Of a stretch of 64,000 nucleotides of DNA, positions 4,175-24,497 are shown piece by piece. The stretch is from a virus (taxonomy: Duplodnaviria > Caudoviricetes). Location: the IMG/VR virus record IMGVR_UViG_3300043395_004688; one strand, given 5' to 3'. Made by a program: the position numbers and the translations under genes. The notes below the pieces were generated by a model. The model ran no database searches and had not been told where the DNA came from. It was given only the letters and a program-made list of their open reading frames with translations. Each line of letters opens with the position of its first letter. The first letter of the stretch is position 1.

Positions 4175-4179
4175 ACTAA

Positions 4180-4187: not shown

Positions 4188-4210
4188 GTAATAATTTGGA
4201 GAAATTTACC

Positions 4211-7186: not shown

Positions 7187-7190
7187 ATAG

Positions 7191-7403: not shown

Positions 7404-7405
7404 AC

Positions 7406-8261: not shown

Positions 8262-8542
8262 TGCCCCTAGAGGTGCATAAACAGCAACTAACTGCAAAAT
8301 TTAGCTGGATAACTAGAGTTGACATAGACGAATTAGGGTATAACATTAACAATGTACCTTGGCTATTTGACATTTTGCTATGGTCTGATTCGTGGTCTTG
8401 GGAATGTACTACCACCATCAACAGCAAAAGCGACAACATTCAATGGAAGTTTGATTCCAGCCAAGAGCTTGAAGAATTTCTAATGTTGTTTGCACTAAAA
8501 TGGGGGAAGATGACACATGTCCGATTCTTGGACGATGATTGA
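8261..8542 (+). CDS. Small paralogue family member 8
   Basis: QWKFDSSQELEEFLMLFALKWG; TAATG overlap places the start at 8261. Confidence 0.7.
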   Translation: MPLEVHKQQLTAKFSWITRVDIDELGYNINNVPWLFDILLWSDSWSWECTTTINSKSDNIQWKFDSSQELEEFLMLFALKWGKMTHVRFLDDD

Positions 8543-8822
8543 CGCCGACGGGCGAGAGTTTGGTATTGACATTGTGGGGTCAAGGCAACTGGGAGAACTG
8601 TGTATCTACTATTGTTTTCCTTACTACATACCCAAAGGTTCAACGCCGCCCTATCCTGGTTTTGAGTGTTTGAGGATTTGGTTGAATTTAAATTTCTCCA
8701 GTGTGGCCCACGAAGTGGTTACAAAAGGAGTGCCAATGGATACTAAAAAATCATGGGCTACATTAGAAGTAACTTTCAGCGATCCTGAGGAAGCTATGTT
8801 GTTTAGGCTAATGTGCAGTTGA
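8517..8822 (+). CDS. Small paralogue family member 9
   Basis: IWLNLNFS ... EVTFSDPEEAMLFRLMCS; start could be 8517 or 8535. Confidence 0.7.
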   Translation: MSDSWTMIDADGREFGIDIVGSRQLGELCIYYCFPYYIPKGSTPPYPGFECLRIWLNLNFSSVAHEVVTKGVPMDTKKSWATLEVTFSDPEEAMLFRLMCS

Positions 8823-8847
8823 CATTGCCACATACACACAGTATAAT
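8819..8847 (+). promoter_or_regulatory. Sigma70-type promoter; -10 lies in the loop of an 8-bp inverted repeat
   Basis: TTGACA-17-TATAAT; ATG 5 nt later; catacaca (8831-8838) pairs with tgtgtatg (8848-8855). Confidence 0.85.
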
Positions 8848-8852
8848 TGTGT

Positions 8853-9269
8853 ATGCAAATCGTTGTACATTCAAGCAGCCCCGGTAAACAGGCCTTGGTT
8901 GAGGCTAGTGCAAGGTTCTACGAACAAGAACTTAAATTACAAAAAAGCAAGTACACTCTTGAGATCCAATTTAAGAAAGGCTTGGCCAAGCGAAAAGGCA
9001 TGAGAGGTTGTGTAAGTGACATCGCTCCAAAACATTTGATCATGTTACTAGACTCCAATCTGCAAGATCATGCGTTGTTTGAAACCCTTGCACACGAAAT
9101 GATTCATGTCAAGCAATATGCTCGAGGACAGTTTAGGATTGACAGAAACAAAACCATATGGTTAGGTAAACCACTCAAACTAAAATATTATCAACAGCCC
9201 TGGGAGATCGAAGCCATGGGTAAAGAAAAAGTACTTGCTAGTAAAATATACAGTATTATTTGGAGTTAG
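8853..9269 (+). CDS. HExxH zinc metallopeptidase-like protein, probably leaderless
   Basis: LAHEMIHVKQY ... QPWEIEA. Confidence 0.75.
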   Translation: MQIVVHSSSPGKQALVEASARFYEQELKLQKSKYTLEIQFKKGLAKRKGMRGCVSDIAPKHLIMLLDSNLQDHALFETLAHEMIHVKQYARGQFRIDRNKTIWLGKPLKLKYYQQPWEIEAMGKEKVLASKIYSIIWS

Positions 9270-9270
9270 C

Positions 9271-9492
9271 ATGTACGAAGAGTTTACTTGGACAAATTCC
9301 AAACATGACCCTATGATAATCGAGATCAAGCATCACGGTCATGTGGTAATGCATTTCTTTCTCGGTGAAGCCATGGAAGGTGCCGGTAGAGCTCGTGTAA
9401 TGAGTCATGTCCGTGAGTGCGATCACAGTCCTTGGCTGAGTCAGTGGCGAGAACATGCCGAACAAGAAATGCTAGCAAAGTTAGGAAGATAA
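9271..9492 (+). CDS. Hypothetical protein
   Basis: GGAG RBS before ATG 9271; in operon register. Confidence 0.6.
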   Translation: MYEEFTWTNSKHDPMIIEIKHHGHVVMHFFLGEAMEGAGRARVMSHVRECDHSPWLSQWREHAEQEMLAKLGR

Positions 9493-9495
9493 ACT

Positions 9496-9891
9496 ATGAA
9501 TGATGAAATTAAAAAGCAAGAGGTATTAGATCAATTACATGAAGCTGGCCGACAATTTAACAAAGCCATGCAAGAATATCAAGACTCTTGCAACAGCTAT
9601 TGGAACAGTCTTGGTCCTGAAGAACAACTCATGGCATTTTGCGCCATGGTAGAGCGTCTTCACCGCGGCGAAATTGAACACAAGCGTAGCTACCGAGGCA
9701 TGCTCTATGATGTATTTGGTTGGGGACCAGAAGCCTATGCACCTGCTCAGCTTGCTGGCTTTTTAGATTTGCATAACTCAATTTATGACTTTGATGACCT
9801 CTTGGTAGTATTTAAGAATACTCTTGAGGAATTAAACATTCAGGTTCCTGATGACCAACTCAGCGAAGCCTTGGCAAAACACTTTTACTAA
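9496..9891 (+). CDS. Hypothetical protein
   Basis: AGGA RBS; 131-aa helical ORF in operon register. Confidence 0.65.
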   Translation: MNDEIKKQEVLDQLHEAGRQFNKAMQEYQDSCNSYWNSLGPEEQLMAFCAMVERLHRGEIEHKRSYRGMLYDVFGWGPEAYAPAQLAGFLDLHNSIYDFDDLLVVFKNTLEELNIQVPDDQLSEALAKHFY

Positions 9892-9908
9892 TAGGAACTA
9901 CATACTAG

Positions 9909-12554
9909 ATGTTTGTTGACGCCTATCATGATAAAAAGACTGAAGTCATCCATGTGGTTGAACGAGTGGATGGCCAGAGAATTCTCAAAGAATATCCTGC
10001 TCGCTATGTACTGTATTACCCAGACAACAAGGGTAAGTTCACTGACATCTCCGGCAATCGAGTAACGCGAGTAATGGTCAGTAATCTTGCGGCCTTTGAC
10101 AAAGAACGCAGGATTCACAACAACAAGAGACTCTGTGAAAGCGATTACAGGCCGCTTAACCGCTGTCTTGAAGAACAGTACGGTGGTCAAGAAGCACCCA
10201 ATCTGCATGTGGCTTTCTTTGACATTGAGGTGGCCTATGACAAGGTCAAGGGCTTTGCCGACCCCAGTGATCCTTTCAACAATGTCACTGCCATTACCAC
10301 TTACTTAGGGTGGCTGGATAGAAACATTACCTTGGTTATAAAGCCAGATGAAATGCCTGTAAACCAGGCAGCAGAAATTGCTGGCAAGTTTGATGATACC
10401 ATACTCTGTGAAGATGAAAAGCAGATGTTGGAGATGTGGCTGGATCTGATTCAGGATGCAGATGTCTACACAGGTTGGAACAGCGAAGGCTTTGATATTC
10501 CTTATCTCACTAATCGCATCACTCGTGTGCTTGGCAAAGAACTGACTCGTAAGATGTGCCTGTGGGACCAGTTTCCTACAAAGAGATATTTTGAAAAATA
10601 TGGTAAGGAACTTGAGACCTATGATCCTATTGGTCGAGTTCACCTAGATTATCTAGAACTTTATCGCAAGTACAACTATCATGAGATGCACACATACCGC
10701 TTGGATGCCATTGGCGAGTATGAAATTGGTGAGAAAAAGATTCCATATGAAGGCACACTTGATCAATTGTACAACAATGATTTTGAAAAGTTCATTGCCT
10801 ATAACAGGCAGGATGTTGTGTTGCTCAAAAAACTCGACGACAAACTTAAATTCATTGAACTTACCAACCTGATTAGTCATGCCAATACTGTAGGACTTAG
10901 AGCTACACTTGGAGCGGTGGCTGTCACTGACCAAGCAGTTATCAACGAAGCTCATCGCCTTAACATGGTTGTTCCTGACAGACCGCGGAGAGGAGACAGC
11001 GAGGACAATGCTGCCGCAGGTGCCTATGTTGCTGTACCCAAGCAAGGCATGCACGAGTGGATTGGCTCCATGGACATTAACAGTCTGTATCCAAGTTTGA
11101 TTCGTGCGCTAAACATGAGCCCTGAAACCATTGTTGGCCAGGTGCGCCAAACAAGAACCAATGAAGGCATTCGAGAATTCAAAGAAGCCGGAAAGGGCAT
11201 TGCTGAGTTTTGGGAAGGTAAGTTTGCCTGCTTTGAATATGAAAGTGTAATGAATCGAGAGATTGGTACCAGTGAAATTGTTGACTGGGCCGATGGAACC
11301 AGCACTGAAATGAGTAGTGCCGAGGTATACGACTATGTGTTCCATGGCGGTAAGCCTTTGATGATCAGTGGCAATGGCACTATCTTTAGATACGATGCCA
11401 AGGGTGTTATTCCTGGTCTTCTGGAACGCTGGTATGCAGAGCGTAAAGAGCTACAAAAGAAAGCTAAGTCAGCCACCGATCCTAAAGAGTTTGAGTTTTG
11501 GGACAAGCGGCAGCTGGTTAAAAAGATTAACCTTAACTCAGCATACGGCGCCTTGCTTAACGCAGGTTCAAGATTCTTTGACCAACGACTTGGGCAGTCA
11601 ACTACCCTTTGCGGTCGACTAGTTGCCAGGCACATGGCTGGTGCTGTCAACGATTGCTTAACCGGTGTAAAGGATCATATGGGAGATGCTATCATCTATG
11701 GTGATACAGACTCGGTATATTTCAGTGCTTATCCTTTGTTTAAAGATCAAATTGAAAAGGGTGAGATCGCTTGGACAGATGAAAAAGCCATTGAACTGTA
11801 TGATGCCATTAGTGAACAGGTGAATGCCACATTTCCGGCTTTTATGAACTATGCCTTTAACGCACCAGCTGCACAAGGCGAGATTATCAAAGCAGGTCGC
11901 GAGCTAGTTGCAAGCAAGGGCATCTACATGACCAAGAAGCGTTATGCTGTTCTTATTGTTGATAAGGAAGGCAAGCGCAAAGATGTCAATGGATCCACTG
12001 GTGAACTCAAAGCCATGGGTCTTGACATGAAGCGAGCAGATACTCCCGAATTCATGCAAAGGTTCTTGGAAGAAATCCTAACAATGACTTTGGAAGGCAA
12101 AACGGAAGCTGAAGTTATGGCTCGTGTCAAGCAGTTCCGTGAGGAGTTTAAGAGCCGTCCGGGTTGGGAAAAGGGTACACCCAAGCGTGTTAACAACCTA
12201 ACTAAGCATACTGATGTTTATAAGAAAACAGGCAAGTGTGGAGTGGGACATGCTATGGCAGCTATCAATTGGAACAGGATCAAAGAAGCCTATGGCGATC
12301 GGCGTAGCATGGATATCACTGACGGGCAAAAGGCCATTGTGTGCAAACTAAGAAGCAACCCGTTGCAGATTAACTCAATTGCCTATCCCATTGATGAGAT
12401 GAACCTACCAGATTGGTTTAAGCAGTTGCCCTTTGATCATGTGGCCATGGAAGAAACTATCATTGACAGCAAAATTGATAACCTTCTGGGCGTACTAAAA
12501 TGGGACCTTAGCCAAAGCAAGGACCGCGGATTGATCAATGAGTTATTCTCTTAA
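9909..12554 (+). CDS. Family B DNA polymerase (T4 gp43-like)
   Basis: Exonuclease motifs FFDIE, WNSEGFD, YNRQD; polymerase motifs DINSLYPS, KINLNSAYG, YGDTDS; C-terminal LINELFS clamp-binding-like peptide. Confidence 0.97.
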   Translation: MFVDAYHDKKTEVIHVVERVDGQRILKEYPARYVLYYPDNKGKFTDISGNRVTRVMVSNLAAFDKERRIHNNKRLCESDYRPLNRCLEEQYGGQEAPNLHVAFFDIEVAYDKVKGFADPSDPFNNVTAITTYLGWLDRNITLVIKPDEMPVNQAAEIAGKFDDTILCEDEKQMLEMWLDLIQDADVYTGWNSEGFDIPYLTNRITRVLGKELTRKMCLWDQFPTKRYFEKYGKELETYDPIGRVHLDYLELYRKYNYHEMHTYRLDAIGEYEIGEKKIPYEGTLDQLYNNDFEKFIAYNRQDVVLLKKLDDKLKFIELTNLISHANTVGLRATLGAVAVTDQAVINEAHRLNMVVPDRPRRGDSEDNAAAGAYVAVPKQGMHEWIGSMDINSLYPSLIRALNMSPETIVGQVRQTRTNEGIREFKEAGKGIAEFWEGKFACFEYESVMNREIGTSEIVDWADGTSTEMSSAEVYDYVFHGGKPLMISGNGTIFRYDAKGVIPGLLERWYAERKELQKKAKSATDPKEFEFWDKRQLVKKINLNSAYGALLNAGSRFFDQRLGQSTTLCGRLVARHMAGAVNDCLTGVKDHMGDAIIYGDTDSVYFSAYPLFKDQIEKGEIAWTDEKAIELYDAISEQVNATFPAFMNYAFNAPAAQGEIIKAGRELVASKGIYMTKKRYAVLIVDKEGKRKDVNGSTGELKAMGLDMKRADTPEFMQRFLEEILTMTLEGKTEAEVMARVKQFREEFKSRPGWEKGTPKRVNNLTKHTDVYKKTGKCGVGHAMAAINWNRIKEAYGDRRSMDITDGQKAIVCKLRSNPLQINSIAYPIDEMNLPDWFKQLPFDHVAMEETIIDSKIDNLLGVLKWDLSQSKDRGLINELFS

Positions 12555-12570: not shown

Positions 12571-12599
12571 TTGACTTTGTCTACTTTTCTAAATATAAT
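12571..12599 (+). promoter_or_regulatory. Sigma70-type promoter for the clamp-dpdA operon
   Basis: TTGACT-17-TATAAT, then GGAG RBS. Confidence 0.8.
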
Positions 12600-12623
12600 C
12601 ACTAATAACTGGAGAAATCACCA

Positions 12624-13343
12624 ATGCTAAAAGATATTGTGCTTGATGTAGCAAAAAACATCGCCAGCCTAGGAACCTTTGAAGAGGTCCTAGTTGAACA
12701 AGAAACTAACAACACTAAGTTTACTGCTTATCCAGAGGATTCGAGTATCACTGTTCTTGCCAGTAGCAAGAACAAGGTCGTAGAATTCCCAGAAAAGTTT
12801 GGTATGCTAAACCTTGGATTCTTTGTTGGATTGTCAAACCTGTATCGCGCTGACGACACTAGCGTAGCCACTGGTACCAACAGCAAAAGCGATATTGATC
12901 GTCTAGTCTTTTCCAGTAAGGATGGCAACAACGACGAATATCGACTAACACCTACCAACTTAATGAAGACCAAGAGCCGTAGCTTTAACGGCACTACCTG
13001 GGATGTTGTGGTCAATCCTGCAGCCAACAAGATCAGCGAACTGGCTCAACGAGCAGGCTTGTACGCAAGCATTGATCCAAATCTACTTGCCAGCACAGAA
13101 AATGGCAAGTTGGTTTTCACATTTGGTGGAGTCAGCGGTGGTGGCCATAGCGGCAAGTTTGTGTTTGCTGACACTACTCAAAAGCTCAAGCGTCCGGTAG
13201 CATTGCCAATCAACAGCTTGCTCATGGCACTAAAGACTGCTAGTCAAGGTACCCCAGTGGTCAGCTTTAGTGAAAAGGTTGCTAAGGTTGAATTTGATAG
13301 TGGTTTAATCAAGTACGAATATCTTATTATTGCTCAACAATAA
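12624..13343 (+). CDS. Sliding clamp (T4 gp45-like)
   Basis: 239 aa, directly after polB; FGMLNLGFFVGL resembles the gp45 FGIYDL..FL segment; C-terminal F.S....YEYLI. Confidence 0.65.
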   Translation: MLKDIVLDVAKNIASLGTFEEVLVEQETNNTKFTAYPEDSSITVLASSKNKVVEFPEKFGMLNLGFFVGLSNLYRADDTSVATGTNSKSDIDRLVFSSKDGNNDEYRLTPTNLMKTKSRSFNGTTWDVVVNPAANKISELAQRAGLYASIDPNLLASTENGKLVFTFGGVSGGGHSGKFVFADTTQKLKRPVALPINSLLMALKTASQGTPVVSFSEKVAKVEFDSGLIKYEYLIIAQQ

Positions 13344-13352
13344 GAAAAAATA

Positions 13353-14915
13353 ATGACAGCAAGTAAAAAATCCAAAGTAGATTTATGGGCAAAGAACGAA
13401 GATTATGCTGTGTTCTTGCCCAGCATTTCAACTTTCTATAATACCATCATTAGCAAAGAGCGCAATGAGCCTGGTGTAAGTGTTCCACCAGACCGTGTGC
13501 CTCAAGAGTTTGAAAATGGCATTGAAGGCATGAACTTCCTTAATAAGGATGCTGCCTACTACCATTATCCTTATGCTCTTTACTCTGCTGGTCATGCACA
13601 ACTTGATCTCAGTAAAACTGACACCGAAGAATCAATGATTCAAAAGCGCGATCGCAAGAATACTTTTATTCTTGGCGACAGCGGTGGATTTCAGATTGCC
13701 AAAGGTGTTATTAAGTTCGACTGGGAAAATTTCATGGAGAGACCCGGTGACCAAGGATACAAAGGATCTGCTGACAAGACTCGCGGCCAGATTCTCAACT
13801 GGCTTGAGCATACTGCTGATTATAGCATGGTTCTTGATATTCCTACTTGGGCGGCAAGACCTCCACTGAACGAGCGCACGGGCCTACAAAGCTTCCAACA
13901 ATGTTTGGATGGTACCTTGTACAACAATGCTTGGTTCTTGGCAAATCGTAAGCATCAAACTAAGTTTTTAAATGTCTTGCAGGGCAGTAACAATCAAGAA
14001 GCTGATATTTGGTATGATGCTGTCAAACACTTCCCCTTTGAAGGTTGGGCCATGGGTGGTAACAACATGCAGGATGCACATCTGCTGTTGAGGCGCCTGA
14101 TCCAAATGCGTGACGAGGGTATGTTGGCTCCGGGTCGTGATGTAATCCATGTGCTGGGTACCAGTCGACTAGAATTTGCTATCTTTTTAACTGCGGTTCA
14201 ACGAGCTCTGCGCGAACATGTTAATCCTAACATGATGGTTACTTTTGACTGCGCTAGCCCATTTGTAGCCGTAGCATATGGTCTAAGCTATACCCAACAT
14301 GTACACAGCAACGACCGTTTCACTTATGTGATGGAAAAGGCTGTTGATAATCGCGAACTCAGTGGCAGCAAAATTCCTTGGCCGTGGAACAGTCCAATCG
14401 GTGAAAGATTAACCATGGGCGATATTTGCTATTACAAGCCTGGTCAGGCTAATAAAACTGGCAAGGTATCAAGGACTAGTTGGGATACATTTAGTTACAG
14501 CCTAATTATGGCTCACAATGTCTACCAACACATTGAGTCGGTTCAACGAGCCAATGCCCTTGCAGATGTTGCACATAAGCTAACCAGACCTGATCCAAGA
14601 GAATGGAGGAAAGGACGGCAAAGAAGTCAAGAAGGTCAGCTTGACTTATGGGTGCCGCGTAATGTATTATACATTATGGAACTAGTAGACCAAGTGTTTA
14701 AAGTTGAAAACCCTTATGAGTTATTGAATCAGTGTAGCTCACTGCTCTCAGAATTTTCTGGCCGCAAGACTCGCAAGAGCGGAGCAGAAGCAGTACACGA
14801 CATCTTTACCACTGACGACGGATCAAGTGCAACAGAAATGGCTGAAGGTGGCGAGTTTGATGATCCTAATGATCCTAAGTTGATGGAACTTGAACAACTG
14901 GCTAAGGATGAATGA
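13353..14915 (+). CDS. dpdA: DpdA-like DNA-guanine transglycosylase (TGT superfamily)
   Basis: GDSGGFQ, MVLDIP, NVLQG, IHVLGT, TFDCASP, MAHN; no CxCxxC zinc motif; folE and queE are in the window. Confidence 0.8.
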   Translation: MTASKKSKVDLWAKNEDYAVFLPSISTFYNTIISKERNEPGVSVPPDRVPQEFENGIEGMNFLNKDAAYYHYPYALYSAGHAQLDLSKTDTEESMIQKRDRKNTFILGDSGGFQIAKGVIKFDWENFMERPGDQGYKGSADKTRGQILNWLEHTADYSMVLDIPTWAARPPLNERTGLQSFQQCLDGTLYNNAWFLANRKHQTKFLNVLQGSNNQEADIWYDAVKHFPFEGWAMGGNNMQDAHLLLRRLIQMRDEGMLAPGRDVIHVLGTSRLEFAIFLTAVQRALREHVNPNMMVTFDCASPFVAVAYGLSYTQHVHSNDRFTYVMEKAVDNRELSGSKIPWPWNSPIGERLTMGDICYYKPGQANKTGKVSRTSWDTFSYSLIMAHNVYQHIESVQRANALADVAHKLTRPDPREWRKGRQRSQEGQLDLWVPRNVLYIMELVDQVFKVENPYELLNQCSSLLSEFSGRKTRKSGAEAVHDIFTTDDGSSATEMAEGGEFDDPNDPKLMELEQLAKDE

Positions 14916-14916
14916 G

Positions 14917-15438
14917 ATGAGTGGAATTGATCGTATCGCAAAGGATTTTTTTCTTGGCGTTGAGGTAGAAAATTCTCCTGCCAAGTCAATGCAAACCTTG
15001 TTTGTTGTTGGGCTTCAGTCTGCGGATCAAGTGCTTGGTCTTGCAATTGAACACTATTGTGAACATGTATACCTGGGTGCCAACATGAGTATGCATTATC
15101 TACAGTATACGGATCATGATGAATGGGAAAAGTGGGATCGGCTAATCGAAGCCTTGACACACAGCCCAATGATCAAGTATATTACAGTTGATATTACAAC
15201 TGATCAAGTTGAGGGGTTCGTCGAAAGCATGGCATCTGAAAGTAACAAGGTAATTCCAATGATTTCGGTGAAACTACCTTATGTAAAATTGCTTAACTAC
15301 AATACTACGATCAAGCTCGACGACAAGGGTTTTGATCAAACCAATCCAGGAGTATGGTGTCACTTGCTACATGATTTAATGGATCGAGAACATTTTACTC
15401 CATGGATAGCCTACAATGGCGACACTCCCGTAAATTAA
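14917..15438 (+). CDS. Hypothetical protein coupled to dpdA
   Basis: Starts 1 nt after the dpdA stop (alternative start 14908); alternating beta/alpha pattern; GVWCH near the C-terminus. Confidence 0.65.
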   Translation: MSGIDRIAKDFFLGVEVENSPAKSMQTLFVVGLQSADQVLGLAIEHYCEHVYLGANMSMHYLQYTDHDEWEKWDRLIEALTHSPMIKYITVDITTDQVEGFVESMASESNKVIPMISVKLPYVKLLNYNTTIKLDDKGFDQTNPGVWCHLLHDLMDREHFTPWIAYNGDTPVN

Positions 15439-15461
15439 ACTTAAACAAAGGAAAATAGAAA

Positions 15462-15668
15462 ATGAGTGAATCAGACGAAGTTAAGGTTGGTAGCTTTAAT
15501 AAGGTTCCAAAGCGTCCAATTCCAAATGGTGCTGCCAATGGTGCCGCACCTGTTGCCGAAGTCAGCAATGCTGATATTTCTGCAAAGCTGGATCAAATGA
15601 ACAAGCATCTTCAGGCTATTGACTGGAAGATGTGGGTTTATCTCAAGGCCAATAACTATATTGATTAA
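15462..15668 (+). CDS. Hypothetical protein
   Basis: AAGGA RBS; 68 aa with a short coiled segment. Confidence 0.6.
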   Translation: MSESDEVKVGSFNKVPKRPIPNGAANGAAPVAEVSNADISAKLDQMNKHLQAIDWKMWVYLKANNYID

Positions 15669-15676
15669 GGATTAAC

Positions 15677-16048
15677 ATGTCACAAGACATGATTTGGGTT
15701 ACCTTCCGTAAAGAAGGTATTCATAGGTATCCTGCCGCAGGGCAGGATCCAAAGCTCGCAAGCGGCGATGAGTATGATGTAAGTTTCTTGCAGTATCCGC
15801 ATCGTCATATCTTTCATTTCAAAGTTTATCTAGAGGTCTTCCATGACGACAGAGATGTAGAGTTTATTCAGTTTAAGCGTTGGCTAGAAAATTTGTACAG
15901 CCAAGGCACACTTGAATTGAATTACAAATCGTGTGAAATGATTGCTGATGATCTTCATAAGGAAATCTCAGCAAAATATACAAGTCGTAAAATTTGGATT
16001 GAAGTCTCGGAGGATGGCGAAAATGGATGCATCAAACAATACTCTTAA
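15677..16048 (+). CDS. T-fold QueD paralogue (DpdL-like)
   Basis: LQYPHRHIF fits LxxxHRHxF; DRDVEF, SCEMIA and IEVSEDGENG are T-fold hallmarks; lacks the QueD CxxxHGH. Confidence 0.7.
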   Translation: MSQDMIWVTFRKEGIHRYPAAGQDPKLASGDEYDVSFLQYPHRHIFHFKVYLEVFHDDRDVEFIQFKRWLENLYSQGTLELNYKSCEMIADDLHKEISAKYTSRKIWIEVSEDGENGCIKQYS

Positions 16049-16481
16049 TACTCGTGTTCGTTTTGATAGGAGAGAGCGTGTGAATACATATAATAACAAT
16101 CAACCCAAGCGGGCTGGTCTTAATCTTAATCATATTAAGTTTGATCTGCTTAAGATCAGTGAACTATATGATGGTGTTCTAACCGAAGACCTTGGTCATT
16201 TGCCTTTGAATCTTTATAATCAGTATCTTACTGATTTGGTTCGAGATCGCTATATTCATAGCTACAACATTGAGACGCCAGAAATGCGTACTCATGAAGC
16301 CACAGGAGATCGTAGTTTTACCTATACGATCAATGTTCAAAACTCACCTGAGCGGTCTAGCAAGGCCCTCAAGATTCATGTGGGCTTTTACAAGAGTGCT
16401 TGGGCGCCAACCACTCGTCATACTGCTGACGGTATGTGCTGTATGCCCGACCGCTTAGATCGAGAGGACACCAATGCGTAA
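16014..16481 (+). CDS. Hypothetical protein
   Basis: GGAGG before ATG 16014 (or 16023); overlaps both neighbours. Confidence 0.55.
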   Translation: MAKMDASNNTLNTRVRFDRRERVNTYNNNQPKRAGLNLNHIKFDLLKISELYDGVLTEDLGHLPLNLYNQYLTDLVRDRYIHSYNIETPEMRTHEATGDRSFTYTINVQNSPERSSKALKIHVGFYKSAWAPTTRHTADGMCCMPDRLDREDTNA

Positions 16482-17685
16482 ACTCTACTACATGGGATTA
16501 GAACCCTATGAGGGTAGATATACGCTACAACTACAGCAATGGAATGAAGCGGTGTTCAAGCGCCGCAACATTAACTATGTTGTTGTTCCAGGTAAGACCA
16601 TTGACAATACCCGAGCTATCAGTGTAGGTCAAGTGTTAGATGCACATGGCCGCAGTTACTTTGGTATGAGCCAAATGATGAACTTGGTTCAGTTGATGCG
16701 AAGCGGCGAAGTTACCGGCGAGGATGTCGTCTATTTTGAAGACATGTTTCAGCCCGGTATCGAATCGCTTCCATACATCATGGATCAGATTCCGGCCAAT
16801 CAACGACCAAGAGTTTTTGTGCGGTGTTTGGCACAGGCCATTGACCCCGATGACTTTGTTCATGTTTGGGGCATGAGCAAGTGGATGAGCTTGTACGAAC
16901 ACATGGTGAATGAGTTTGTTACTGGTGTACTTGCGACCAATGAGGAAATGGTAGCTCACATGCGTATTGCTAATTGGACTGCTCCAATCTACAATATCAG
17001 TGGACTAGCATTTGGTAAAGAAGAAGTAAGAGGTCGTGTTAATAATAAGATTAAATCTTGGCCTGAGAGAGCAAATCGTGTAGTCTTTGCCGCAAGATTT
17101 GATCAAGAAAAGCAGCCAGACTTCTTTATGGATGTCATTGAAGAATGGCATCGTCAGTGGCCTGGAATTCCAGTTGAGTTTGCAGTATTAAGCGGCGGGC
17201 CGTTGCGTAGCAACAATCCCAAGTATCTAGAGCGAGCCGCACAAATGGAGGCACTAGGTAAACTAAAAATTTACAAAGACCTTAAAAAGAATGATTACTA
17301 TAATTTGGTCAACGATAGCCGTGTGCTTTTTAATTGTGCTTTACAGGACTGGGTATCTAACACAGTTTCGGAAGCTGATGCTCTTGGTTGTAATGTGCTA
17401 TATCCTGCTTATCGCAGTTTCCCTGAAACCTTTGCCAACGATCACACTAGGTTGTATGTGCCCTGGAGCATCGATGACGCAGTGAACAAACTGCGAATCC
17501 AGCTAGCTGGCCCACATGTTAATCAAGGCAAGATCAGTGACTGGAATAATGGCACCATTGATCGCATCTTAGACATTATGGAAACTGCTGGTACTGTTGC
17601 CGAAGGCGGAATGGCTTGTAAAGCCACCCAATGGAATCGTTCTGGTAATCGATACAGAGACCATGTTGCTGGGGCCAAGTACTAA
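16474..17685 (+). CDS. GT-B fold glycosyltransferase (GT4-like)
   Basis: VVFAARFDQEKQPDFF, YYNLVNDSRVLFNCALQDWVSNTVSEADALGCNVLYP. Confidence 0.8.
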   Translation: MRKLYYMGLEPYEGRYTLQLQQWNEAVFKRRNINYVVVPGKTIDNTRAISVGQVLDAHGRSYFGMSQMMNLVQLMRSGEVTGEDVVYFEDMFQPGIESLPYIMDQIPANQRPRVFVRCLAQAIDPDDFVHVWGMSKWMSLYEHMVNEFVTGVLATNEEMVAHMRIANWTAPIYNISGLAFGKEEVRGRVNNKIKSWPERANRVVFAARFDQEKQPDFFMDVIEEWHRQWPGIPVEFAVLSGGPLRSNNPKYLERAAQMEALGKLKIYKDLKKNDYYNLVNDSRVLFNCALQDWVSNTVSEADALGCNVLYPAYRSFPETFANDHTRLYVPWSIDDAVNKLRIQLAGPHVNQGKISDWNNGTIDRILDIMETAGTVAEGGMACKATQWNRSGNRYRDHVAGAKY

Positions 17686-18678
17686 ATGGACAAGTGGGTT
17701 GCTGTTACAGGGGCCTGTGGCTACATTGGTGGGCAAACAGTCTTAAAGTTCAAAGACAAGGGCTATAAAGTACTGGGCGTAGACCGTGCCGCAACTGCGC
17801 CATGGATTCGTCAAGCCTGTGATGCATTTGTCGAGGGTGATTTTACCAACCTTATGTTTATTCTCAATGTTGTTAATAACAATGTTGAGGCAATCATACA
17901 TTGTGCTGGGACTAGTCTAGTTGGTCCCAGCGTTCTAAGTCCTGGTCAGTACTATGTCAACAATGTTGGCAATACCGCCAAGCTCTTGGCCATTTTAAAA
18001 GAAAATAAATGGCAAGGTACTTTTGTATTTTCAAGTAGCGCGGCTGTCTATGGCAATCCCGTAGAGTTTCCATTAACTGAAAATTCGTTAAAGGTACCAG
18101 TTAGTCCCTATGGTCATAGCAAGCTTATGACTGAGCAAGCTATAAAGGACTGCGCCTTTGCATATAACCTAAAGGCCATTTCGCTGAGATACTTTAATGC
18201 CTGTGGAGCCGATCTCAAAGGACGACACGGACAATTAAAAAATGCCACGCATCTAATTGCAAGAATCATGGAGAGTGTACTCAATAAGAGTGTGTTTACT
18301 TTAAATGGTACCAACTACGATACACCAGATGGTACTTGTGTTCGTGACTACTTACATGTTGATGATATTGCCAACGCACATTACCTCTCTGTACAATACG
18401 CACAGACTATGGAAACTGGTAGTAGCCAAGAATTTAACCTAGGCACTGGCACTGGTATCAGCATCAACGAAATCATAGCCAGTGTTGAAAGAAATATTCC
18501 ATACAAGGTTCTAGTACATAAAGGACCGCGTCGTGAAGGCGATCCTGCTAAATTAGTTGCTAGTTCCAGTAAAATTGTCAAGCACATGGGTTGGAAACCT
18601 GAAAACAGCAGCATCGATAACATTGTTCGATCTGCTTGGGCTTGGTATAACTCGACTGAATTTAAAAATAGAGCATGA
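17686..18678 (+). CDS. galE: UDP-glucose 4-epimerase
   Basis: TGACGYIG, FSSSAAVYG, YGHSK (YxxxK), LRYFNACGA, DGTCVRDYLHV. Confidence 0.9.
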   Translation: MDKWVAVTGACGYIGGQTVLKFKDKGYKVLGVDRAATAPWIRQACDAFVEGDFTNLMFILNVVNNNVEAIIHCAGTSLVGPSVLSPGQYYVNNVGNTAKLLAILKENKWQGTFVFSSSAAVYGNPVEFPLTENSLKVPVSPYGHSKLMTEQAIKDCAFAYNLKAISLRYFNACGADLKGRHGQLKNATHLIARIMESVLNKSVFTLNGTNYDTPDGTCVRDYLHVDDIANAHYLSVQYAQTMETGSSQEFNLGTGTGISINEIIASVERNIPYKVLVHKGPRREGDPAKLVASSSKIVKHMGWKPENSSIDNIVRSAWAWYNSTEFKNRA

Positions 18679-19013
18679 AACTAAATCAACATGACATTGG
18701 CGGTGAAGTTGTTAAGAGCAACGAGACCTATGTGCTCAAAGACAATCGCACTTTAAAAAATCTAGTATTGAGTAGCACTCTTCTATATCGAGGACAGCAG
18801 ACTCGCGGACACCGACACAGCGGCCAAGAAGAAGTGTACTTCTTTGTCCAAGGCAACGGTAAAATGATTGTCGGTGACGAAACCAGTGAACCCTTTATCG
18901 TCAATGCAGGAGATGTTGTACTAATTCCAGATGGTGCTTTTCATCGCGTAATTAACGATGGTGAAATGCACATGATGTTTAATTGTGTCTTTGACGGAAA
19001 GCGTAATCACTAA
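18675..19013 (+). CDS. Cupin-domain protein
   Basis: GHRHSGQEEVYFFVQGNG ... GDVVLIPDGAFHRVIN. Confidence 0.85.
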   Translation: MKLNQHDIGGEVVKSNETYVLKDNRTLKNLVLSSTLLYRGQQTRGHRHSGQEEVYFFVQGNGKMIVGDETSEPFIVNAGDVVLIPDGAFHRVINDGEMHMMFNCVFDGKRNH

Positions 19014-19453
19014 TGAAAGTAGGTTTTACTTGTTCAACCTTTGACCTCTTACATGCAGGTCATGTAGCAATGTTACAAGAAGCAAAAACTCAATGCGACT
19101 ATTTGATTGTAGGTCTACAAAACGACCCAACCCTTGATCGCCCTAGCAAAAATAAGCCTGTACAAAGCATTGTTGAACGGCAGATGCAGTTGCGAGGAAG
19201 TAAATATGTTGATGAGGTTTGGATCTATAACACAGAAAAAGACCTCGAAGATTTACTTTTAACCTTACCACTTAATGTGCGTATCTTGGGCGTTGAGTAT
19301 GAGGGTAAAGAATTTACCGGACGAGAAATTTGTCATAAACGAAATATTGACTTGTATTTTAACAAACGCGATCACAGCTTTAGTTCAAGCAGTCTAAGAA
19401 GGCGAGTGTATGAAGCTGAAGTTGCCAAGGAATGGATAAATGAAAATCAGTGA
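19013..19453 (+). CDS. Cytidylyltransferase (TagD-like)
   Basis: CSTFDLLHAGH, YLIVGL, RDHSFSSSSLR. Confidence 0.85.
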   Translation: MKVGFTCSTFDLLHAGHVAMLQEAKTQCDYLIVGLQNDPTLDRPSKNKPVQSIVERQMQLRGSKYVDEVWIYNTEKDLEDLLLTLPLNVRILGVEYEGKEFTGREICHKRNIDLYFNKRDHSFSSSSLRRRVYEAEVAKEWINENQ

Positions 19454-19871
19454 TTTAAAAGAAAATGTAAATGATGCATGGTTTGAAACTGGCAGCTTCA
19501 AGACTTTTAAAAAGCCTGCACAAGAAAAATATGAAGTTGCACAACAGGCAGGAACTGTTGACACTTTAGAAGGACCTGTTCGCTATGAAGCTGGTCATTA
19601 TATTATGACTGGTCCCAAGGGAGAAAAATATCCTATTACTCCTGAAAAGTTTGCAGATCTCAAAGATGATTTTGGAAATGGCATTGCTAGCCCCAAGAAG
19701 ATAATGAAGGTAGCCAAGCTTGCTGACCATGATGGTGTGTTGCACACCTCCTGGGGCGACTTGAATTACACCGCTGGCAATGACTATATTGTTCGTCATG
19801 GTCCAAACGACTACGGCGCCGTGAAGAAAGATATCTTCATGCAAACCTATGATACTTCAGGAATTAACTAA
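19440..19871 (+). CDS. PGDYG-like protein with an internal duplication
   Basis: TLEGPVRYEAGHYIMTGPKGEKYPI and TSWGDLNYTAGNDYIVRHGPNDYGAV are two similar halves. Confidence 0.6.
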   Translation: MKISDLKENVNDAWFETGSFKTFKKPAQEKYEVAQQAGTVDTLEGPVRYEAGHYIMTGPKGEKYPITPEKFADLKDDFGNGIASPKKIMKVAKLADHDGVLHTSWGDLNYTAGNDYIVRHGPNDYGAVKKDIFMQTYDTSGIN

Positions 19872-20119
19872 TGGAAGTTGTAATTTACAGCAAGGACAAT
19901 TGTCCATACTGCGATATGGCCAAGAACTGGTTCAAACGAAAGAACCTTACTTTTACTGAACACAAAATTGGAACCAATGGTTTTACTAGAGAAATGCTAT
20001 TAGAAGCTGTACCAACGGCAAGAACCGTTCCTCAAATCATCGTTGATGGTGAATTAATTGGTGGCTGGACTGATTTGTGTCAAAGCAAGTTGTATGCCCA
20101 GTACAGTAATTCAAACTGA
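19871..20119 (+). CDS. Glutaredoxin
   Basis: CPYC active site, TVPQI, IGG. Confidence 0.92.
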   Translation: MEVVIYSKDNCPYCDMAKNWFKRKNLTFTEHKIGTNGFTREMLLEAVPTARTVPQIIVDGELIGGWTDLCQSKLYAQYSNSN

Positions 20120-20468: not shown

Positions 20469-21152
20469 ATGTCATATAACAAAACAAAAACCGATCCCGC
20501 CTTGGGACAACTTGTACACGAGCACTTGGTCAAGTGTGGTGTAGAAACTCCAGTAAATCAGAACAGCCTAGACCGTAAAGAAAAGATTGATCTCATTGAG
20601 AGCCACTTTACCAAGATCATGCAGACTCTTGGATTAGATCTCAGCGATGACAGCCTCATCGAAACACCCAAGCGTGTGGCCAAGATGTATGTCAACGAAA
20701 TCTTCTGGGGCCTTGACTATGATGCATTTCCTAAATGCACCACAGTTGACAACAAGATGAAATACGACGAAATGGTTGTCGAGCGTAATGTCAATGTACA
20801 AAGCAACTGCGAACATCACTTTGTGGTAATTGATGGTGTGGCCACTGTTGCTTACATTCCCAAGCAAAAGGTTCTAGGACTTAGCAAGATCAACCGCGTA
20901 GTTGAATACTTTGCCAAGCGTCCACAGATCCAAGAACGCCTCACCGAGCAGGTCTATCACGCACTACAATACATTTTAGAAACCGACGACATTGCCGTAG
21001 TCGTAGATGCCCAGCATTACTGCGTTAAGAGTCGCGGTGTCGAAGATGTTGGTTCATCTACAGTAACCAGCAAACTTGGTGGTGTGTTTAAGTCTGATCC
21101 AAGCGTTCGCTTAGAGTTTATGAACATCGTTAATAACTGTAAAAGAGGGTAA
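20469..21152 (+). CDS. folE: GTP cyclohydrolase I
   Basis: ETPKRVAKMY, SNCEHHF, GLSKINR, RPQIQERLT, HYCVKSRG. Confidence 0.96.
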   Translation: MSYNKTKTDPALGQLVHEHLVKCGVETPVNQNSLDRKEKIDLIESHFTKIMQTLGLDLSDDSLIETPKRVAKMYVNEIFWGLDYDAFPKCTTVDNKMKYDEMVVERNVNVQSNCEHHFVVIDGVATVAYIPKQKVLGLSKINRVVEYFAKRPQIQERLTEQVYHALQYILETDDIAVVVDAQHYCVKSRGVEDVGSSTVTSKLGGVFKSDPSVRLEFMNIVNNCKRG

Positions 21153-21153
21153 A

Positions 21154-21669
21154 GTGAGTGACAAGAAAGATCAAAGTTATAACACCGATGACATAAACAT
21201 TGGTTGGGAATCGCCTTGCCCGTCTCAAGACTATATTGTTCAAGGCGACTACTGCAATATGGGCATGCCAAGTGCCTCTGTTACTGCAACCACTACTAGC
21301 CTTGACATATCAAACATGGGCGCCGCAGGGTCTGTTTATGCCATAGACACTACCGACACCATTGACCTTAGCAGTATCACCATTGGCAGCGGCGGTAATA
21401 CTACTATCAACAGTAATCCTTATACATTTTCAACTTGGGAAACTAAAAACACTTTGAATGGTGTTGAGGAAATACACACCAAGTCCGGTAAGAAGATTGA
21501 TGTTGATGAACTGGCTGAAGTTGTTGAAACTATCAAAAAGCGGTTGCTGATACTAACACCAAACTTTGAAATGCATGAAAAATATCCAATGCTCAAAGAA
21601 CTCTATGAAGAATACAAGGCATTGGAAAAGCTTTTAGGCGGTCCAGACAACGAGGAAAATAATGGTTAA
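21154..21669 (+). CDS. Hypothetical protein with an S/T-rich middle
   Basis: Low-complexity S/T/G centre; C-terminal LTPNFEMHEKYPMLKELYEEY. Confidence 0.6.
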   Translation: MSDKKDQSYNTDDINIGWESPCPSQDYIVQGDYCNMGMPSASVTATTTSLDISNMGAAGSVYAIDTTDTIDLSSITIGSGGNTTINSNPYTFSTWETKNTLNGVEEIHTKSGKKIDVDELAEVVETIKKRLLILTPNFEMHEKYPMLKELYEEYKALEKLLGGPDNEENNG

Positions 21670-22162
21670 ACAATCACTGTCTTGGAATGAAGTTACCTGT
21701 TTGGTTAATGATTTAGCTAGACAGGTTTCTTTATCAAACTGGAAACCTGATTACATTGTAGGACTGGTTCGTGGTGGATGTGTTCCTGCTGTTATGCTCA
21801 GTCACTACCTTAATGTTCCTTGCGAATCATTGAAGGTAAGTCTGCGCGATGGAGGCAGTTGCGAAAGCAACCTATGGATGGCTGAAGATGCATACGAGGG
21901 GAAAAATATCTTGGTAGTTGACGATATCAATGATTCGGGTGCTACCATTAACTGGATCAAGCAAGATTGGCCCAGTGGTTGTTTTCCAGATGATGAAAAG
22001 TGGATCAATGTTTGGGAAAACAATGTGAAATTTGCTGTATTGGTTGACAACTCTGCCAGCGAAGCGTATAGTAACTTCTGCGGCATGACTGTTAACAAGG
22101 CCGAAAATGATGTTTGGATTGATTTTCCTTGGGAATCTTTTTGGAATAGGAACACACAATGA
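21662..22162 (+). CDS. Purine phosphoribosyltransferase (type I PRTase)
   Basis: IVGLVRGG, PRPP loop ILVVDDINDSGAT, WIDFPWE. Confidence 0.88.
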   Translation: MVKQSLSWNEVTCLVNDLARQVSLSNWKPDYIVGLVRGGCVPAVMLSHYLNVPCESLKVSLRDGGSCESNLWMAEDAYEGKNILVVDDINDSGATINWIKQDWPSGCFPDDEKWINVWENNVKFAVLVDNSASEAYSNFCGMTVNKAENDVWIDFPWESFWNRNTQ

Positions 22163-22569
22163 AAGTAGGATTTAGTCTGGGTCGGTGTGTGCGAGATATT
22201 GTCAAAGGTCTAGTTGACATTGAAGATGTAGTTGTTGTCATTGCAGGTACTCGTATTGAGACCCAGGAGCAACTGGCCAGAGTGATTACCGAATATATGT
22301 ATCGACACGACTACCTTGCCGGACTTGATGAAGCCCAGTGTCAAGGAGTTGCTAGTGTGCTTTGGACTGAAGGTAAGGTTCATCAATCGCGACTAAGTGG
22401 ACATTATGCTAGACGCATTAACGAAGAAAGTGTTTGGGCGGATCTTGTGCCAACAGGAGGATTCAATAATCCCATGGTACAGGATGCATGGAACGAATAT
22501 CGAGGAACTCTTTCCATCACAGAAAGTGCGCCCGAAAAAGAAGATGTTGCCAATAATTGGAGATTATAA
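22159..22569 (+). CDS. Hypothetical protein
   Basis: ATGA overlap; [14 protein letters not shown] start. Confidence 0.6.
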
Positions 22570-22895
22570 TGACCTATGTTGTAACCGAGTCATGTATTAA
22601 ATGCAAGTTTACAGATTGTGTAGAAGTATGTCCTGTTGACTGTTTTTATGAAGGACCAAATTTTTTAGTTATCAATCCCGACGAGTGTATTGATTGCGGA
22701 GTGTGTGTTCCGGAATGCCCTGTTGAAGCTATTGTTGCTGATAACGACATCAGTGAAGAACAGAAGCCTTTCATTGAAATCAACAAGCGGCTGAGCTATG
22801 TTGGTTGGCCGGTTATTACCAAGCGCAAGGAAGCGTTGCCTAGTGCCGACGAGTTTAAAGACATCAAGAGCAAAAGGCACTTGCTCGAGGAATGA
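22569..22895 (+). CDS. fdxA: 7Fe (FdxA-type) ferredoxin
   Basis: [21 protein letters not shown] ... [12 protein letters not shown]. Confidence 0.92.
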
Positions 22896-23656
22896 TAGAT
22901 TTTGCCAGCCTTATCAATCTAGATGATTGTGCTACTTTAGCCAAGAAATATTCTGGTGTAGTAGCATTGCCATTGGCGTTGCCAAAATTTACTTGGGACT
23001 CTGAAAAAGAGTTCTGGCGCATTTGGAATACGGATAATGCTGGTGTTACAAGGCAGCACATTGATCGTGGGGCACAAGGCAGATCGGCACCTCGAACTGA
23101 TCTAGTGCAATGGGATGGACTGGCCTTGTATGAGGACCATACACTTTTAGATAAGGCTGCATGGCTCACTAAGGTTTCGCAAGAACTGAGAGAGACCCAG
23201 CCTCAATTTTTGAACTCAATTTTTGATCTTATGCCATTTAGTCGCATACGATCTGTTAGACTATGGAGTGCTAACAAACCAATTCCAGCGCACTATGATG
23301 GCAATATGCCTGCGTCGCTTGATGGTAAATTACAGTTTCCTGCTGAAATAAGAATCATGCTACACGATGCTAATACAACAGAAACTTTCTGGTGCTGTTC
23401 GTCTACCAAGTATCGTCCAGGCCCTGATACTGTTGTTCCTGACAATGATCGCTACTACATTAAATTGCCCACGGACTCAAACACATTTGCGTGGAACAAT
23501 GAAGGATACTTGCACGGTGCAGATTACCATTCTCCGCATAGAAAAATTCTTGCAGTAATTAAAGGTTGGGTTGATACTAGAAGACTAGAAAAATTACTTG
23601 ATCAAAGCATTGAAAAATATCCTTCGCTAATTCTTAGAGAGAAACTAAATGACTAA
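22892..23656 (+). CDS. Putative Fe(II)/2OG dioxygenase-like (double-stranded beta-helix) protein
   Basis: IPAHYDG (HxD) ... [12 protein letters not shown] ... RKILAVI. Confidence 0.55.
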
Positions 23657-24434
23657 AATTGTAATTCAAGGTAAAGGTACAGTTGGCCTATCAACTGAAA
23701 TGTTTCTTAAACATTATATCAAAGATGTTGATGTAGTGTTTAATGATCCTTTTAAGGAAATTGCAGTCAGTCAGGATGATTGGTTGACCGCTGACTATGT
23801 TGCTATTTGTGTAAACACAGACCTTGACGAATCATTGCCTTTGCCAGAAAACAATATTAAAAATGTCGTTGAAGCTATTGGCCATGCAATTGGCTGCGGA
23901 TTTGGTGGCCAATTCTTGGTTCGTAGTACCATTGGTGTCGAAGATGCTGTCAAGCTAGTTAAGGAACACGGAACCAAAATAATTATGTGGCCCGAGTATA
24001 TCAGAGAAGCATCATGGCAACTTGATAGTATTGCACCGCGTATGGTTCTACTAGGTGGCGATGCTGAAAACTTTGCCTTGCTGTTTGATGAAAGCTATCA
24101 AGGTCCAGTTATTATCACCGAACCAGTCGAGGCCATGCTTGCAAAATTAAGCACCAATGCATTTCTATCAACCAAGGTTATTTTTGCCAATCAAGTAAGA
24201 CAACTTTGCGAAACTTATGGTCTAGACTACGGCCTAGTGAGTCAGCTGTTGGCCAATGAAGGTCGGCTGGGAGAAAGCCATTGGCAAAGTCCTGGGCCTG
24301 ATGGGCGAGCTGGCTTTGGCGGTAAATGCTTTCCTAAAGATATGAAAACCTTTGAGACTGCCTTGATAAAAGCAGGCTTACCCAGTAACATGGCTCAGGC
24401 TGTTTTAGATCTGAACAAACAAATGCGACCTTAA
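23649..24434 (+). CDS. Short UDP-glucose/GDP-mannose dehydrogenase-family protein (no C-terminal domain)
   Basis: GKGTVG, VRSTI, PEYIRE, KLSTNAFL..KVIFAN, GFGGKCFPKD. Confidence 0.8.
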   Translation: MTKIVIQGKGTVGLSTEMFLKHYIKDVDVVFNDPFKEIAVSQDDWLTADYVAICVNTDLDESLPLPENNIKNVVEAIGHAIGCGFGGQFLVRSTIGVEDAVKLVKEHGTKIIMWPEYIREASWQLDSIAPRMVLLGGDAENFALLFDESYQGPVIITEPVEAMLAKLSTNAFLSTKVIFANQVRQLCETYGLDYGLVSQLLANEGRLGESHWQSPGPDGRAGFGGKCFPKDMKTFETALIKAGLPSNMAQAVLDLNKQMRP

Positions 24435-24440: not shown

Positions 24441-24469
24441 TTGACATTTGCTGAGAGTTTTGCTAAACT
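24441..24469 (+). promoter_or_regulatory. Sigma70-type promoter
   Basis: TTGACA-17-TAAACT with TG extension; AGGTG RBS before ATG 24498. Confidence 0.75.
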
Positions 24470-24497
24470 ACTATTAGTTACAAATTTAGGTGATCCA

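Follow-up and report, generated by a model that had tools for sequence, protein, structure and literature searches.

A 64,000-nucleotide stretch of a tailed-phage genome (IMG/VR record IMGVR_UViG_3300043395_004688; Duplodnaviria, Caudoviricetes), hereafter the window, carries genes of a 7-deazaguanine DNA-modification system in one string with a glycosyltransferase (GT) and sugar-nucleotide genes. The window belongs to a 177.7-kb IMG/VR record, whose completeness is put at ~53%. The best explanation of this arrangement, to which we give about an even chance, is a DpdL-type 7-deazaguanine system of a freshwater jumbo phage, expressed with the replication genes, in which the GT would hexosylate the base and a long transglycosylase of the TGT fold would insert it into DNA. 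As part of the same explanation, and on equally balanced terms, the long TGT and the GT would form an insertion module alternative to the short DpdA3, the latter being independent of any GT. The comparison of gene neighbourhoods gives strong support to a functional coupling between the deazaguanine system and the GT together with the UDP-glucose 4-epimerase GalE. What appears to be new is a GT family embedded in those deazaguanine clusters that hold a long TGT and absent from those with DpdA3; a literature search returned no paper connecting a glycosyltransferase with phage deazaguanine DNA. The source is a jumbo phage, since the identical GT protein is also present on a 327-kb contig, and the sequence was recovered from RNA libraries as well as several freshwater metagenomes (Illumina-derived contigs, which are blind to base modification).

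The comparison distinguishes the long TGT of the window (TGT1, 520 aa), another long class, TGT2, represented by ACP17, Xanthomonas phage X1 and Synechococcus phage BUCT-ZZ01, and the short DpdA3. Three members of the GT family were searched against 50,697 phage records, and, apart from one more distant relative in the PhiXhv-12 group (see below), the family was confined to seven isolate lineages: the window's own, the PA5oct group, Phosso, ACP17, X1/BUDD, BCSR5 and BUCT-ZZ01. Their backbones are unrelated, comprising jumbo phages, the T4-like BUCT-ZZ01 and the T4-like ACP17. The T4-like cyanophage BUCT-ZZ01 has the order QueE, purine phosphoribosyltransferase (PRTase), another gene, QueD, FolE, a second GT, TGT2, DpdL and GT, while ACP17 has QueD, FolE, another gene, DpdA, GT, DpdL and QueE, and X1/BUDD have FolE followed at some distance by GT, TGT, DpdL and QueE. 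In the PA5oct group the order is PolB, clamp-like protein, another gene, TGT1, GT, DpdL and, further on, QueE; Phosso shows PolB, another gene, clamp, another gene, DpdL, GT, another gene and FolE, with its TGT elsewhere, and in BCSR5 the GT adjoins a 446-aa DSGGFQ protein. Six other DpdL lineages, all with DpdA3 (the phiST group, MA9V-3, D479, Ahp1, RHph_I1_18 and Bakedbeans), lack the GT genome-wide. The family therefore accompanies 7 of 7 lineages with a long DSGGFQ-type TGT and 0 of 6 with DpdA3 (Fisher p = 6e-4).

Metagenomic loci gave a comparable picture. Among 80 IMG/VR loci whose GT is 73–89% identical to that of the window (close loci), the GT (80) is accompanied by DpdL in 75, TGT1 in 75, GalE in 73, FolE in 68 and QueE in 37. 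These loci present more than 40 different local gene orders, GT and GalE often lying directly between DpdL and FolE, and GalE comes after the GT in 73 of them. The proposal of the first-pass annotation that the GT and the sugar genes are attached to the operon holds for the conserved GT and GalE, but not for the cupin and the cytidylyltransferase, which are variable insertions present in 12 and 36 of the 80 loci, respectively; the conserved partner of the GT is GalE. A second set of 80 IMG/VR loci, found with an alignment of TGT2 and 32–43% identical to ACP17 DpdA, holds TGT2 in 80, DpdL in 71, the GT in 70, FolE in 74, QueE in 70 and GalE in 35. Here the GT abuts DpdL in 69/69 (median gap -7 bp, maximum 8), and 6 of the 10 GT-negative loci stop at a contig edge immediately 3' of TGT2 or DpdL. 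By contrast, the 34 IMG/VR loci found with a DpdA3 alignment contain DpdL (20), FolE (23) and QueE (25), and the GT, GalE and a long TGT in none. When clustered at 50% identity, the GT is present in 7 of 9 TGT2 clusters versus 0 of 20 DpdA3 clusters (p = 2e-5). In the reverse direction, with the GT as the starting point, a diverse sample of 80 loci (23–100% identity to the ACP17 GT, which all 80 match) holds DpdL in 64, FolE in 58, QueE in 58, a long TGT in 47 and GalE in 17, with at least one deazaguanine gene in 73; the BCSR5-type TGT (446 aa, DSGGFQ) was not found in those without TGT1 or TGT2 matches. Co-occurrence thus bears out the attachment of the GT to the deazaguanine system, on unrelated backbones, abutting DpdL and absent from all DpdA3-type clusters examined (70/80 TGT2 versus 0/34 DpdA3 loci). 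As a separate observation, BUCT-ZZ01 carries a second, different protein of the GT1 family (447 aa; locus 9010-10353) immediately 5' of TGT2; a second GT is also present in 37 of the 80 TGT2 loci, which hints at a two-sugar decoration.

The 520-aa protein, earlier described as a dpdA-like TGT, has no Pfam, PHROG or NCBIfam match (E <= 0.01–0.1), the TGT model PF01702 and the DpdA model PF23859 included. Its Atlas language-model neighbours carry TGT/DpdA labels; metagenomes contain more than 7000 homologues of it, and 937 clusters were counted at the 50% level. In an alignment of 55 diverse homologues the GDSGGFQ motif, which holds the first catalytic Asp, is invariant, as are D109, S110, G112, H266 and D299, the last one within a TFDCASP motif resembling the "FDC" region of TGT (in sequence alone) and thus a candidate for the second catalytic Asp, the nucleophile. 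The top 36 matches of the family profile to PDB sequences, although weak (E ~0.5), were all TGT, with the DSGGYQ motif, the substrate Asp, the QG motif and the GxAxGG motif in register. Moreover, with the AlphaFold2 (AF2) model (pLDDT 89.6) the top 50 Foldseek matches in the PDB were all Z. mobilis TGT (E ~1e-8, prob 1.0, TM (target) ~0.5–0.55). Motif, profile and model together therefore establish the protein as a TGT-fold enzyme, as had been claimed. Profile comparison with hhalign relates TGT1 to TGT2 (97.3%, E 2e-11), whereas against the short DpdA3 of the phiST CGPG_00065 type (phiST, MA9V-3 and D479) the probability was only 30.8%, and a DpdA3 hidden Markov model gave no match to the window protein. 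That the 520-aa protein exchanges guanine in DNA is suggested by its fold and by the known activity of the family.

The 123-aa T-fold protein could be named, since its LQYPHRHIF fits the LxxxHRHxF pattern that replaces the CxxxHGH of QueD and is the signature of DpdL (Cui, Hutinet et al., NAR 2023, PMC10516641). DpdL is a QueD paralogue proposed to decarboxylate 7-carboxy-7-deazaguanine (CDG) to 7-deazaguanine, an activity still unproven (PMC10516641). The window protein is homologous to phiST CGPG_00067 (tblastn E 3e-7, phmmer E 2.8e-12) and also to ACP17 DpdL, and the signature is kept in all 13 aligned DpdL lineages. The expected gene context is found as well, with a DpdA-like protein, FolE and QueE present and QueC absent from the ~53% complete record. 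In a DpdL tree, the GT-type and DpdA3-type phages are intermixed, the four label changes being what random labelling gives; DpdL is therefore common to both types, while the GT is tied to the long TGT. Judging from this tree, DpdL probably does the same job in both. Other arrangements of this gene were noticed: in Vibrio phage Bakedbeans (locus 7212-8363) and in MA9V-3 (7431-8312) DpdL forms the C-terminal domain of a 383- and a 293-aa protein, respectively, whose N-terminal part has no Pfam match, and in phiST a MazG-like gene overlaps the DpdL start.

Regarding the GT, the window protein scores 25.6 bits against Pfam Glycos_transf_1, slightly below the cut-off of 26.4, whereas its family members from X1 (45.5 bits) and BUCT-ZZ01 (26.5 bits) exceed that value. 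The AF2 model (pLDDT 75.5) has the two-Rossmann GT-B fold, and its Foldseek matches are BshA, MshA, GlgM, SenB, PimA/B and glycogen synthase (E 1e-8 to 5e-10), so that the first assignment as a GT-B glycosyltransferase was upheld. Its members share an N-terminal EPxExRYT, R..EKQP and a D/E-x7-E motif at the presumed donor site, in which the second Glu is invariant and the first is Glu in five lineages and Asp in the window and BUCT-ZZ01. Identity is 71% to BUCT-ZZ01 and ~20–23% to the other isolate lineages; the invariance of the N-terminal motif across lineages sharing only ~20% identity would argue for one common acceptor. With more than 7000 metagenomic homologues, the GT is at least 79% identical over the top 120 clusters, versus ~55% for the TGT. 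A complex prediction for TGT and GT scored 0.00, which carries no weight for or against binding.

In the established pathway, FolE converts GTP to dihydroneopterin triphosphate (H2NTP), from which QueD forms carboxytetrahydropterin (CPH4) and QueE forms CDG. As had been reported, folE and queE lie 3' of the string, both on the same strand. The QueE is divergent, with 28–44 bits on the NCBIfam QueE models, below cut-off (best TIGR03365, 44.5 versus 206), and it is homologous to annotated phage QueE by phmmer (257 bits to BUCT-ZZ01, 79 bits to PA5oct). QueC was stated to be missing from the window, and indeed none scored above cut-off there or in the 177.7-kb, ~53% complete record (weak match of 12.6 bits); a PP-loop protein at 43936-45051 (371 aa) was rejected as QueC, its matches being weak and of Asn-synthase/LarE type only. 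Similarly, PF01242 finds no canonical QueD in this record, and a 171-aa open reading frame (ORF) after folE was rejected, being unrelated to BUCT-ZZ01 QueD. Canonical QueD is present in 18 of the 80 close loci, and it may be supplied by the host or by the unsequenced half of the genome. Altogether, a 7-deazaguanine DNA-modification system tied to replication genes, as proposed from the first reading, is supported by the TGT fold, DpdL, FolE and QueE beside PolB.

The following route would account for these genes. FolE, QueE and a QueD would make CDG from GTP, and DpdL would turn it into 7-deazaguanine, a step proposed in the literature and never reconstituted. The GT, fed with UDP-galactose by the adjacent GalE, would then add a hexose to deazaguanine, either while the base is still free or once it stands in DNA, so that the order of this step and the next may be reversed. 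The long TGT-fold protein, judging from its fold and the activity of its family, would swap a guanine of the DNA for the hexosylated base, and the PRTase could recycle the freed guanine to GMP and back into the pathway. Genes, folds, motifs and linkage are observed; the acceptor atom, the identity of the sugar and the final product are what we infer. The genes between folE and queE (PRTase, metallophosphoesterase and a member of the IMPDH/GMP-reductase family) fit a salvage of the exchanged guanine, or a nucleotide-level route. Homologues of the PRTase are part of the BUCT-ZZ01 and PA5oct clusters and occur in 57 of the 80 close and 12 of the 34 DpdA3 loci. Extended to the family, the proposal is more tentative, its chance falling slightly short of even: a large group of phages abundant in the environment, among them jumbo phages of freshwater and marine origin, some T4-like cyanophages and the lineages of PA5oct, ACP17, X1, BCSR5 and Phosso, would carry a hexose-bearing (probably galactosylated) 7-deazaguanine in place of guanine, made by DpdL and GT and installed by the long TGT.

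Two reports on relatives are relevant here. Phage PA5oct, whose synteny matches in PolB, clamp-like protein, TGT, GT, DpdL and QueE, was inferred to contain a modified G from its resistance to restriction enzymes and from END nucleases targeting G-modified phages (PMC12191111). Expression in E. coli of the dpdL of ACP17 or phiST with the cognate dpdA gave no 2'-deoxy-7-deazaguanosine (dDG), and the authors considered that further enzymes are perhaps required (PMC10516641); in ACP17 the GT is located between these two genes.

Several points weigh against hexosylation of the DNA base. With DpdL, the expected base is an unsubstituted 7-deazaguanine with no obvious oxygen or nitrogen handle at C7; lacking a hydroxyl or a side-chain amine, it offers only N2, O6 or, for a C-glycoside, C7/C8, and the conserved core includes no hydroxylase. 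DpdL activity has itself only been proposed and never demonstrated. The T4 alpha- and beta-glucosyltransferases (AGT, BGT), with which a comparison had been suggested at first, are both missing from the top 50 Foldseek PDB matches of the GT, although its substrate may still be DNA; its closest structural relatives (BshA, MshA and SenB) use small soluble acceptors. The co-occurrence counts are phylogenetically non-independent, and in 7 of the 80 diverse GT loci (~9%) the surrounding 10 kb are free of deazaguanine genes. A partial and more distant relative of the GT, in the PhiXhv-12 group (227-kb Xanthomonas/Erwinia phages; PhiXhv-12 locus 6735-9969), stands in another sugar context, beside GlmS and a BshB-like N-acetylglucosaminyl deacetylase and with no deazaguanine genes nearby; this group may be another sugar-based modification module.

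The alternative that survives best, which we regard as unlikely yet deserving of serious attention, is that the DNA holds plain dDG, as in phiST, and that the GT is needed in the pathway and leaves no sugar in DNA. The GT could then glycosylate a small-molecule intermediate transiently, for instance in order to solubilise, activate or sequester the base for the long TGT, or could have a structural role, partnering either DpdL or the TGT. DpdL and the missing QueC do predict such an unsubstituted, handle-less deazaguanine, the acceptors of the fold neighbours point the same way, and it is to DpdL, not to the TGT, that the GT is translationally coupled in the 69 TGT2 loci. Nevertheless, DpdA3 phages insert their base without a GT (0/34 loci; phiST, PMC10516641), and the company of GalE implies a true use of a specific UDP-sugar; the complex prediction is neutral in this respect.

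An improbable route is entry at the nucleotide level, where the PRTase would make a 7-deaza-GMP analogue, as with toyocamycin/tubercidin-type compounds, to be carried on by kinases of host or phage and ribonucleotide reductase and incorporated by the adjacent PolB, the TGT-fold protein having another role or acting on RNA/tRNA. The presence of the PRTase in most close loci and within three lineages' clusters, the IMPDH/GMP-reductase family and metallophosphoesterase genes and the adjoining polymerase would agree with it. However, the PRTase is missing from ACP17, X1 and 55 of the 80 TGT2 loci and is equally explained by guanine salvage, the TGT-fold protein is universal in these clusters, the window contains no tRNA genes, and DpdA is found in every phage with deazaguanine DNA (PMC10516641). 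Still more improbable is that the GT and sugar-nucleotide genes glycosylate virion proteins or the host envelope and are merely located in an early/replication region, since, although sugar genes are scattered in the window (875-3235, 4816-5586, 23649-24434), the genes beside GalE are variable and some diverse GT loci lack nearby deazaguanine genes, the GT of phages with unrelated backbones is enclosed by DpdL and FolE or by TGT and DpdL, abuts DpdL wherever both were scored in TGT2 loci and is missing from 34/34 DpdA3 loci.

The gene content of the region is collected in Table 1. The claimed gene order and near-abutting spacing were verified from the ORF coordinates: throughout 12624-19453 every ORF has the + orientation, and neighbours either overlap slightly or are no more than 24 nt apart. 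The family searches likewise agreed with the identities given to galE (310.7 versus a cut-off of 262.3), the cupin and the cytidylyltransferase, the last remaining below cut-off on TIGR02199 and TIGR01518.

Table 1. Genes of the deazaguanine–glycosyltransferase region and its surroundings, in positions of the window
Feature	Position	Strand	Basis or remark
PolB	9909-12554	+	Pfam
Clamp-like protein, 239 aa	12624-13343	+	phrog_12062, function unknown; Phosso/PA5oct homology
Long TGT-fold transglycosylase, 520 aa (DpdA-like, TGT1)	13353-14915	+	Motif, profile, AF2 model
Conserved ORF, 182 aa	14890-15438	+	Real start probably several codons downstream
ORF, 68 aa	15462-15668	+	
DpdL, 123 aa (T-fold)	15677-16048	+	LQYPHRHIF; phrog_17812
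ORF, 179 aa	15942-16481	+	Actual start probably ~residue 25; 8-nt overlap with GT start
GT-B (GT4-like) glycosyltransferase, 403 aa	16474-17685	+	Motifs, AF2 + Foldseek
UDP-glucose 4-epimerase GalE	17686-18678	+	TIGR01179
Small cupin	18675-19013	+	Cupin_2 E 3e-13
Cytidylyl/adenylyltransferase-like protein (RfaE domain II/TagD-like)	19013-19453	+	CTP_transf_like E 5e-12
PGDYG protein	19440-19871	+	Family search
Glutaredoxin	19871-20119	+	Family search
GTP cyclohydrolase I FolE	20469-21152	+	PF01227 E 1.7e-62
Purine PRTase	21662-22162	+	Pribosyltran E 2e-14
Ferredoxin	22557-22895	+	Family search
UDP-glucose-dehydrogenase-like protein	23649-24434	+	Family search
Metallophosphoesterase	24441-25352	+	Family search
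IMPDH/GMP-reductase family protein	26029-27048	+	Family search
Divergent QueE-like radical-SAM protein	28265-29134	+	Phage QueE homology
5'-3' exonuclease	32677-33660	+	Family search

The first gene of the string had been called a clamp. This putative name comes solely from homology to a Phosso protein with the annotation "sliding clamp beta"; PA5oct EST35_0314 is a further homologue, and both stand in an equivalent place downstream of the polymerase. A PDB sequence search returned no match. As for expression, a single promoter had been proposed, and the best match is indeed a sigma-70-like candidate, TTGACT-17-TATAAT, at 12571-12599 (+) in the 69-nt gap after PolB (11/12 match), but such sites occur in the region at chance frequency, without enrichment, and a second 11/12 site, TTGACA-18-TATATT, lies at 15154-15183 (+) within the 182-aa ORF. 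Contigs of three RNA libraries (metatranscriptomes) start at 15238-15318, shortly 3' of this second site, and their depth peaks over 15340-17100 (68-aa ORF, DpdL, 179-aa ORF and 5' part of the GT), exceeding there that of TGT or GalE, while a DNA run is flat over the same region. This is a hint that DpdL and GT have their own promoter, with DNA carry-over in the RNA libraries being possible.

Among the small proteins, the 182-aa ORF is kept in 70 of the 80 close loci, with a homologue immediately upstream of ACP17 dpdA, the 179-aa ORF in 43 and the 68-aa ORF in 29. The 182-, 68-, 179-, 171- and 136-aa ORFs have zero matches in Pfam, PHROG and NCBIfam, and Atlas searches with the 182- and 179-aa proteins gave no functional lead. 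The 182-aa ORF was considered as the counterpart of a Phosso protein annotated "glycosylase", and this was rejected, the two being unrelated.

Elsewhere in the window, a second sugar cluster (875-5586) comprises a 786-aa protein like UDP-glucose/GDP-mannose dehydrogenases (875-3235), a nitronate-monooxygenase-like gene on the minus strand, a methyltransferase and, at 4816-5586, a cytidylyltransferase fused to a cupin of the mannose-6-P-isomerase type, which mirrors the separate pair at 18675-19453. Located 3' of queE (31158-32638) are an adjacent PhyH-type Fe/2-oxoglutarate dioxygenase and a MOSC-domain protein; either could modify a base, and neither belongs to the conserved core of the other lineages. 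Further on, a MoxR-type AAA ATPase followed by a DUF2201 metallopeptidase/VWA protein (36512-39163) has a GC content of 0.47–0.52 versus ~0.42 elsewhere, and a 307-aa radical-SAM protein (39340-40263) has weak matches of NrdG/viperin/QueE type.

Among known systems, the DpdA3/DpdL system of the Cellulophaga phage phiST, in which dDG fully replaces deoxyguanosine (PMC10516641), is alike in FolE, QueE, the LxxxHRHxF DpdL, the lack of QueC, a presumed inserter of the TGT superfamily and the 7-deazaguanine expected. It differs in that the inserter of the window is a DSGGFQ-type TGT remote from DpdA3, that GT and GalE are integral to the window cluster and that the search of the 177.7-kb record for a canonical QueD came back empty. 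The clusters of ACP17, X1, BUCT-ZZ01 and PA5oct share, at the level of annotation, the long TGT, a GT of the same family, DpdL, FolE and QueE, and PA5oct and Phosso in addition the PolB/clamp-like synteny, while the clade of the window adds GalE and, variably, the cupin, the cytidylyltransferase and the small ORFs. The glucosyl-hydroxymethylcytosine of T-even phages would be comparable in that a phage GT-B acts with a UDP-sugar on a non-canonical base, presumably against restriction. There, however, the sugar is placed on the hydroxymethyl group of a pyrimidine that arises at the nucleotide level, whereas the window would have a purine analogue, its GT is GT4-like and not AGT/BGT, and no ThyA-type hydroxymethylase was found in the 177.7-kb record, in line with the earlier remark that none was visible.

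Eukaryotic tRNA contains mannosyl- and galactosyl-queuosine, one of whose enzymes has been reported to be GT4-like. Glycosylated queuosine would thus resemble the proposed product in having a sugar on a 7-deazaguanine derivative installed by a TGT, but its target is tRNA and its acceptor a cyclopentenediol, whereas the window has a replication context, no genes of QueA/QueG type and no diol available. Finally, the best structural matches are two retaining GT4 enzymes, BshA and MshA, which serve the synthesis of bacillithiol and mycothiol (GT-B, TM ~0.55–0.6, small-molecule acceptors); however, identity is 10–14%, the acceptor-side motif EPxExRYT is particular to the phage GT family and the gene context is unrelated.

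DNA modifications with 7-deazaguanine are a major counter-defence of phages, and to our knowledge about eight such derivatives occur in DNA, all of them small. If the proposal is true, a purine analogue bearing a sugar would be known from DNA for the first time, possibly as a C- or N-glycoside of the deazapurine ring, and sugar-bearing deazapurines would add a new chemical class to the DNA bases. The failed reconstitution with ACP17 dpdA and dpdL would then also be explained, and the modified G of PA5oct, a therapeutic-candidate phage, would gain a candidate identity. Freshwater and marine viromes both contain the family, which is very common for TGT and GT alike, and the module is present in cultured phages with tractable hosts: PA5oct (PAO1), BUCT-ZZ01 (S. 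elongatus PCC 7942), ACP17 and X1. Even without a sugar in DNA, the strict split between a long TGT with GT and DpdA3 without GT would mean that two mechanistically different insertion modules exist.

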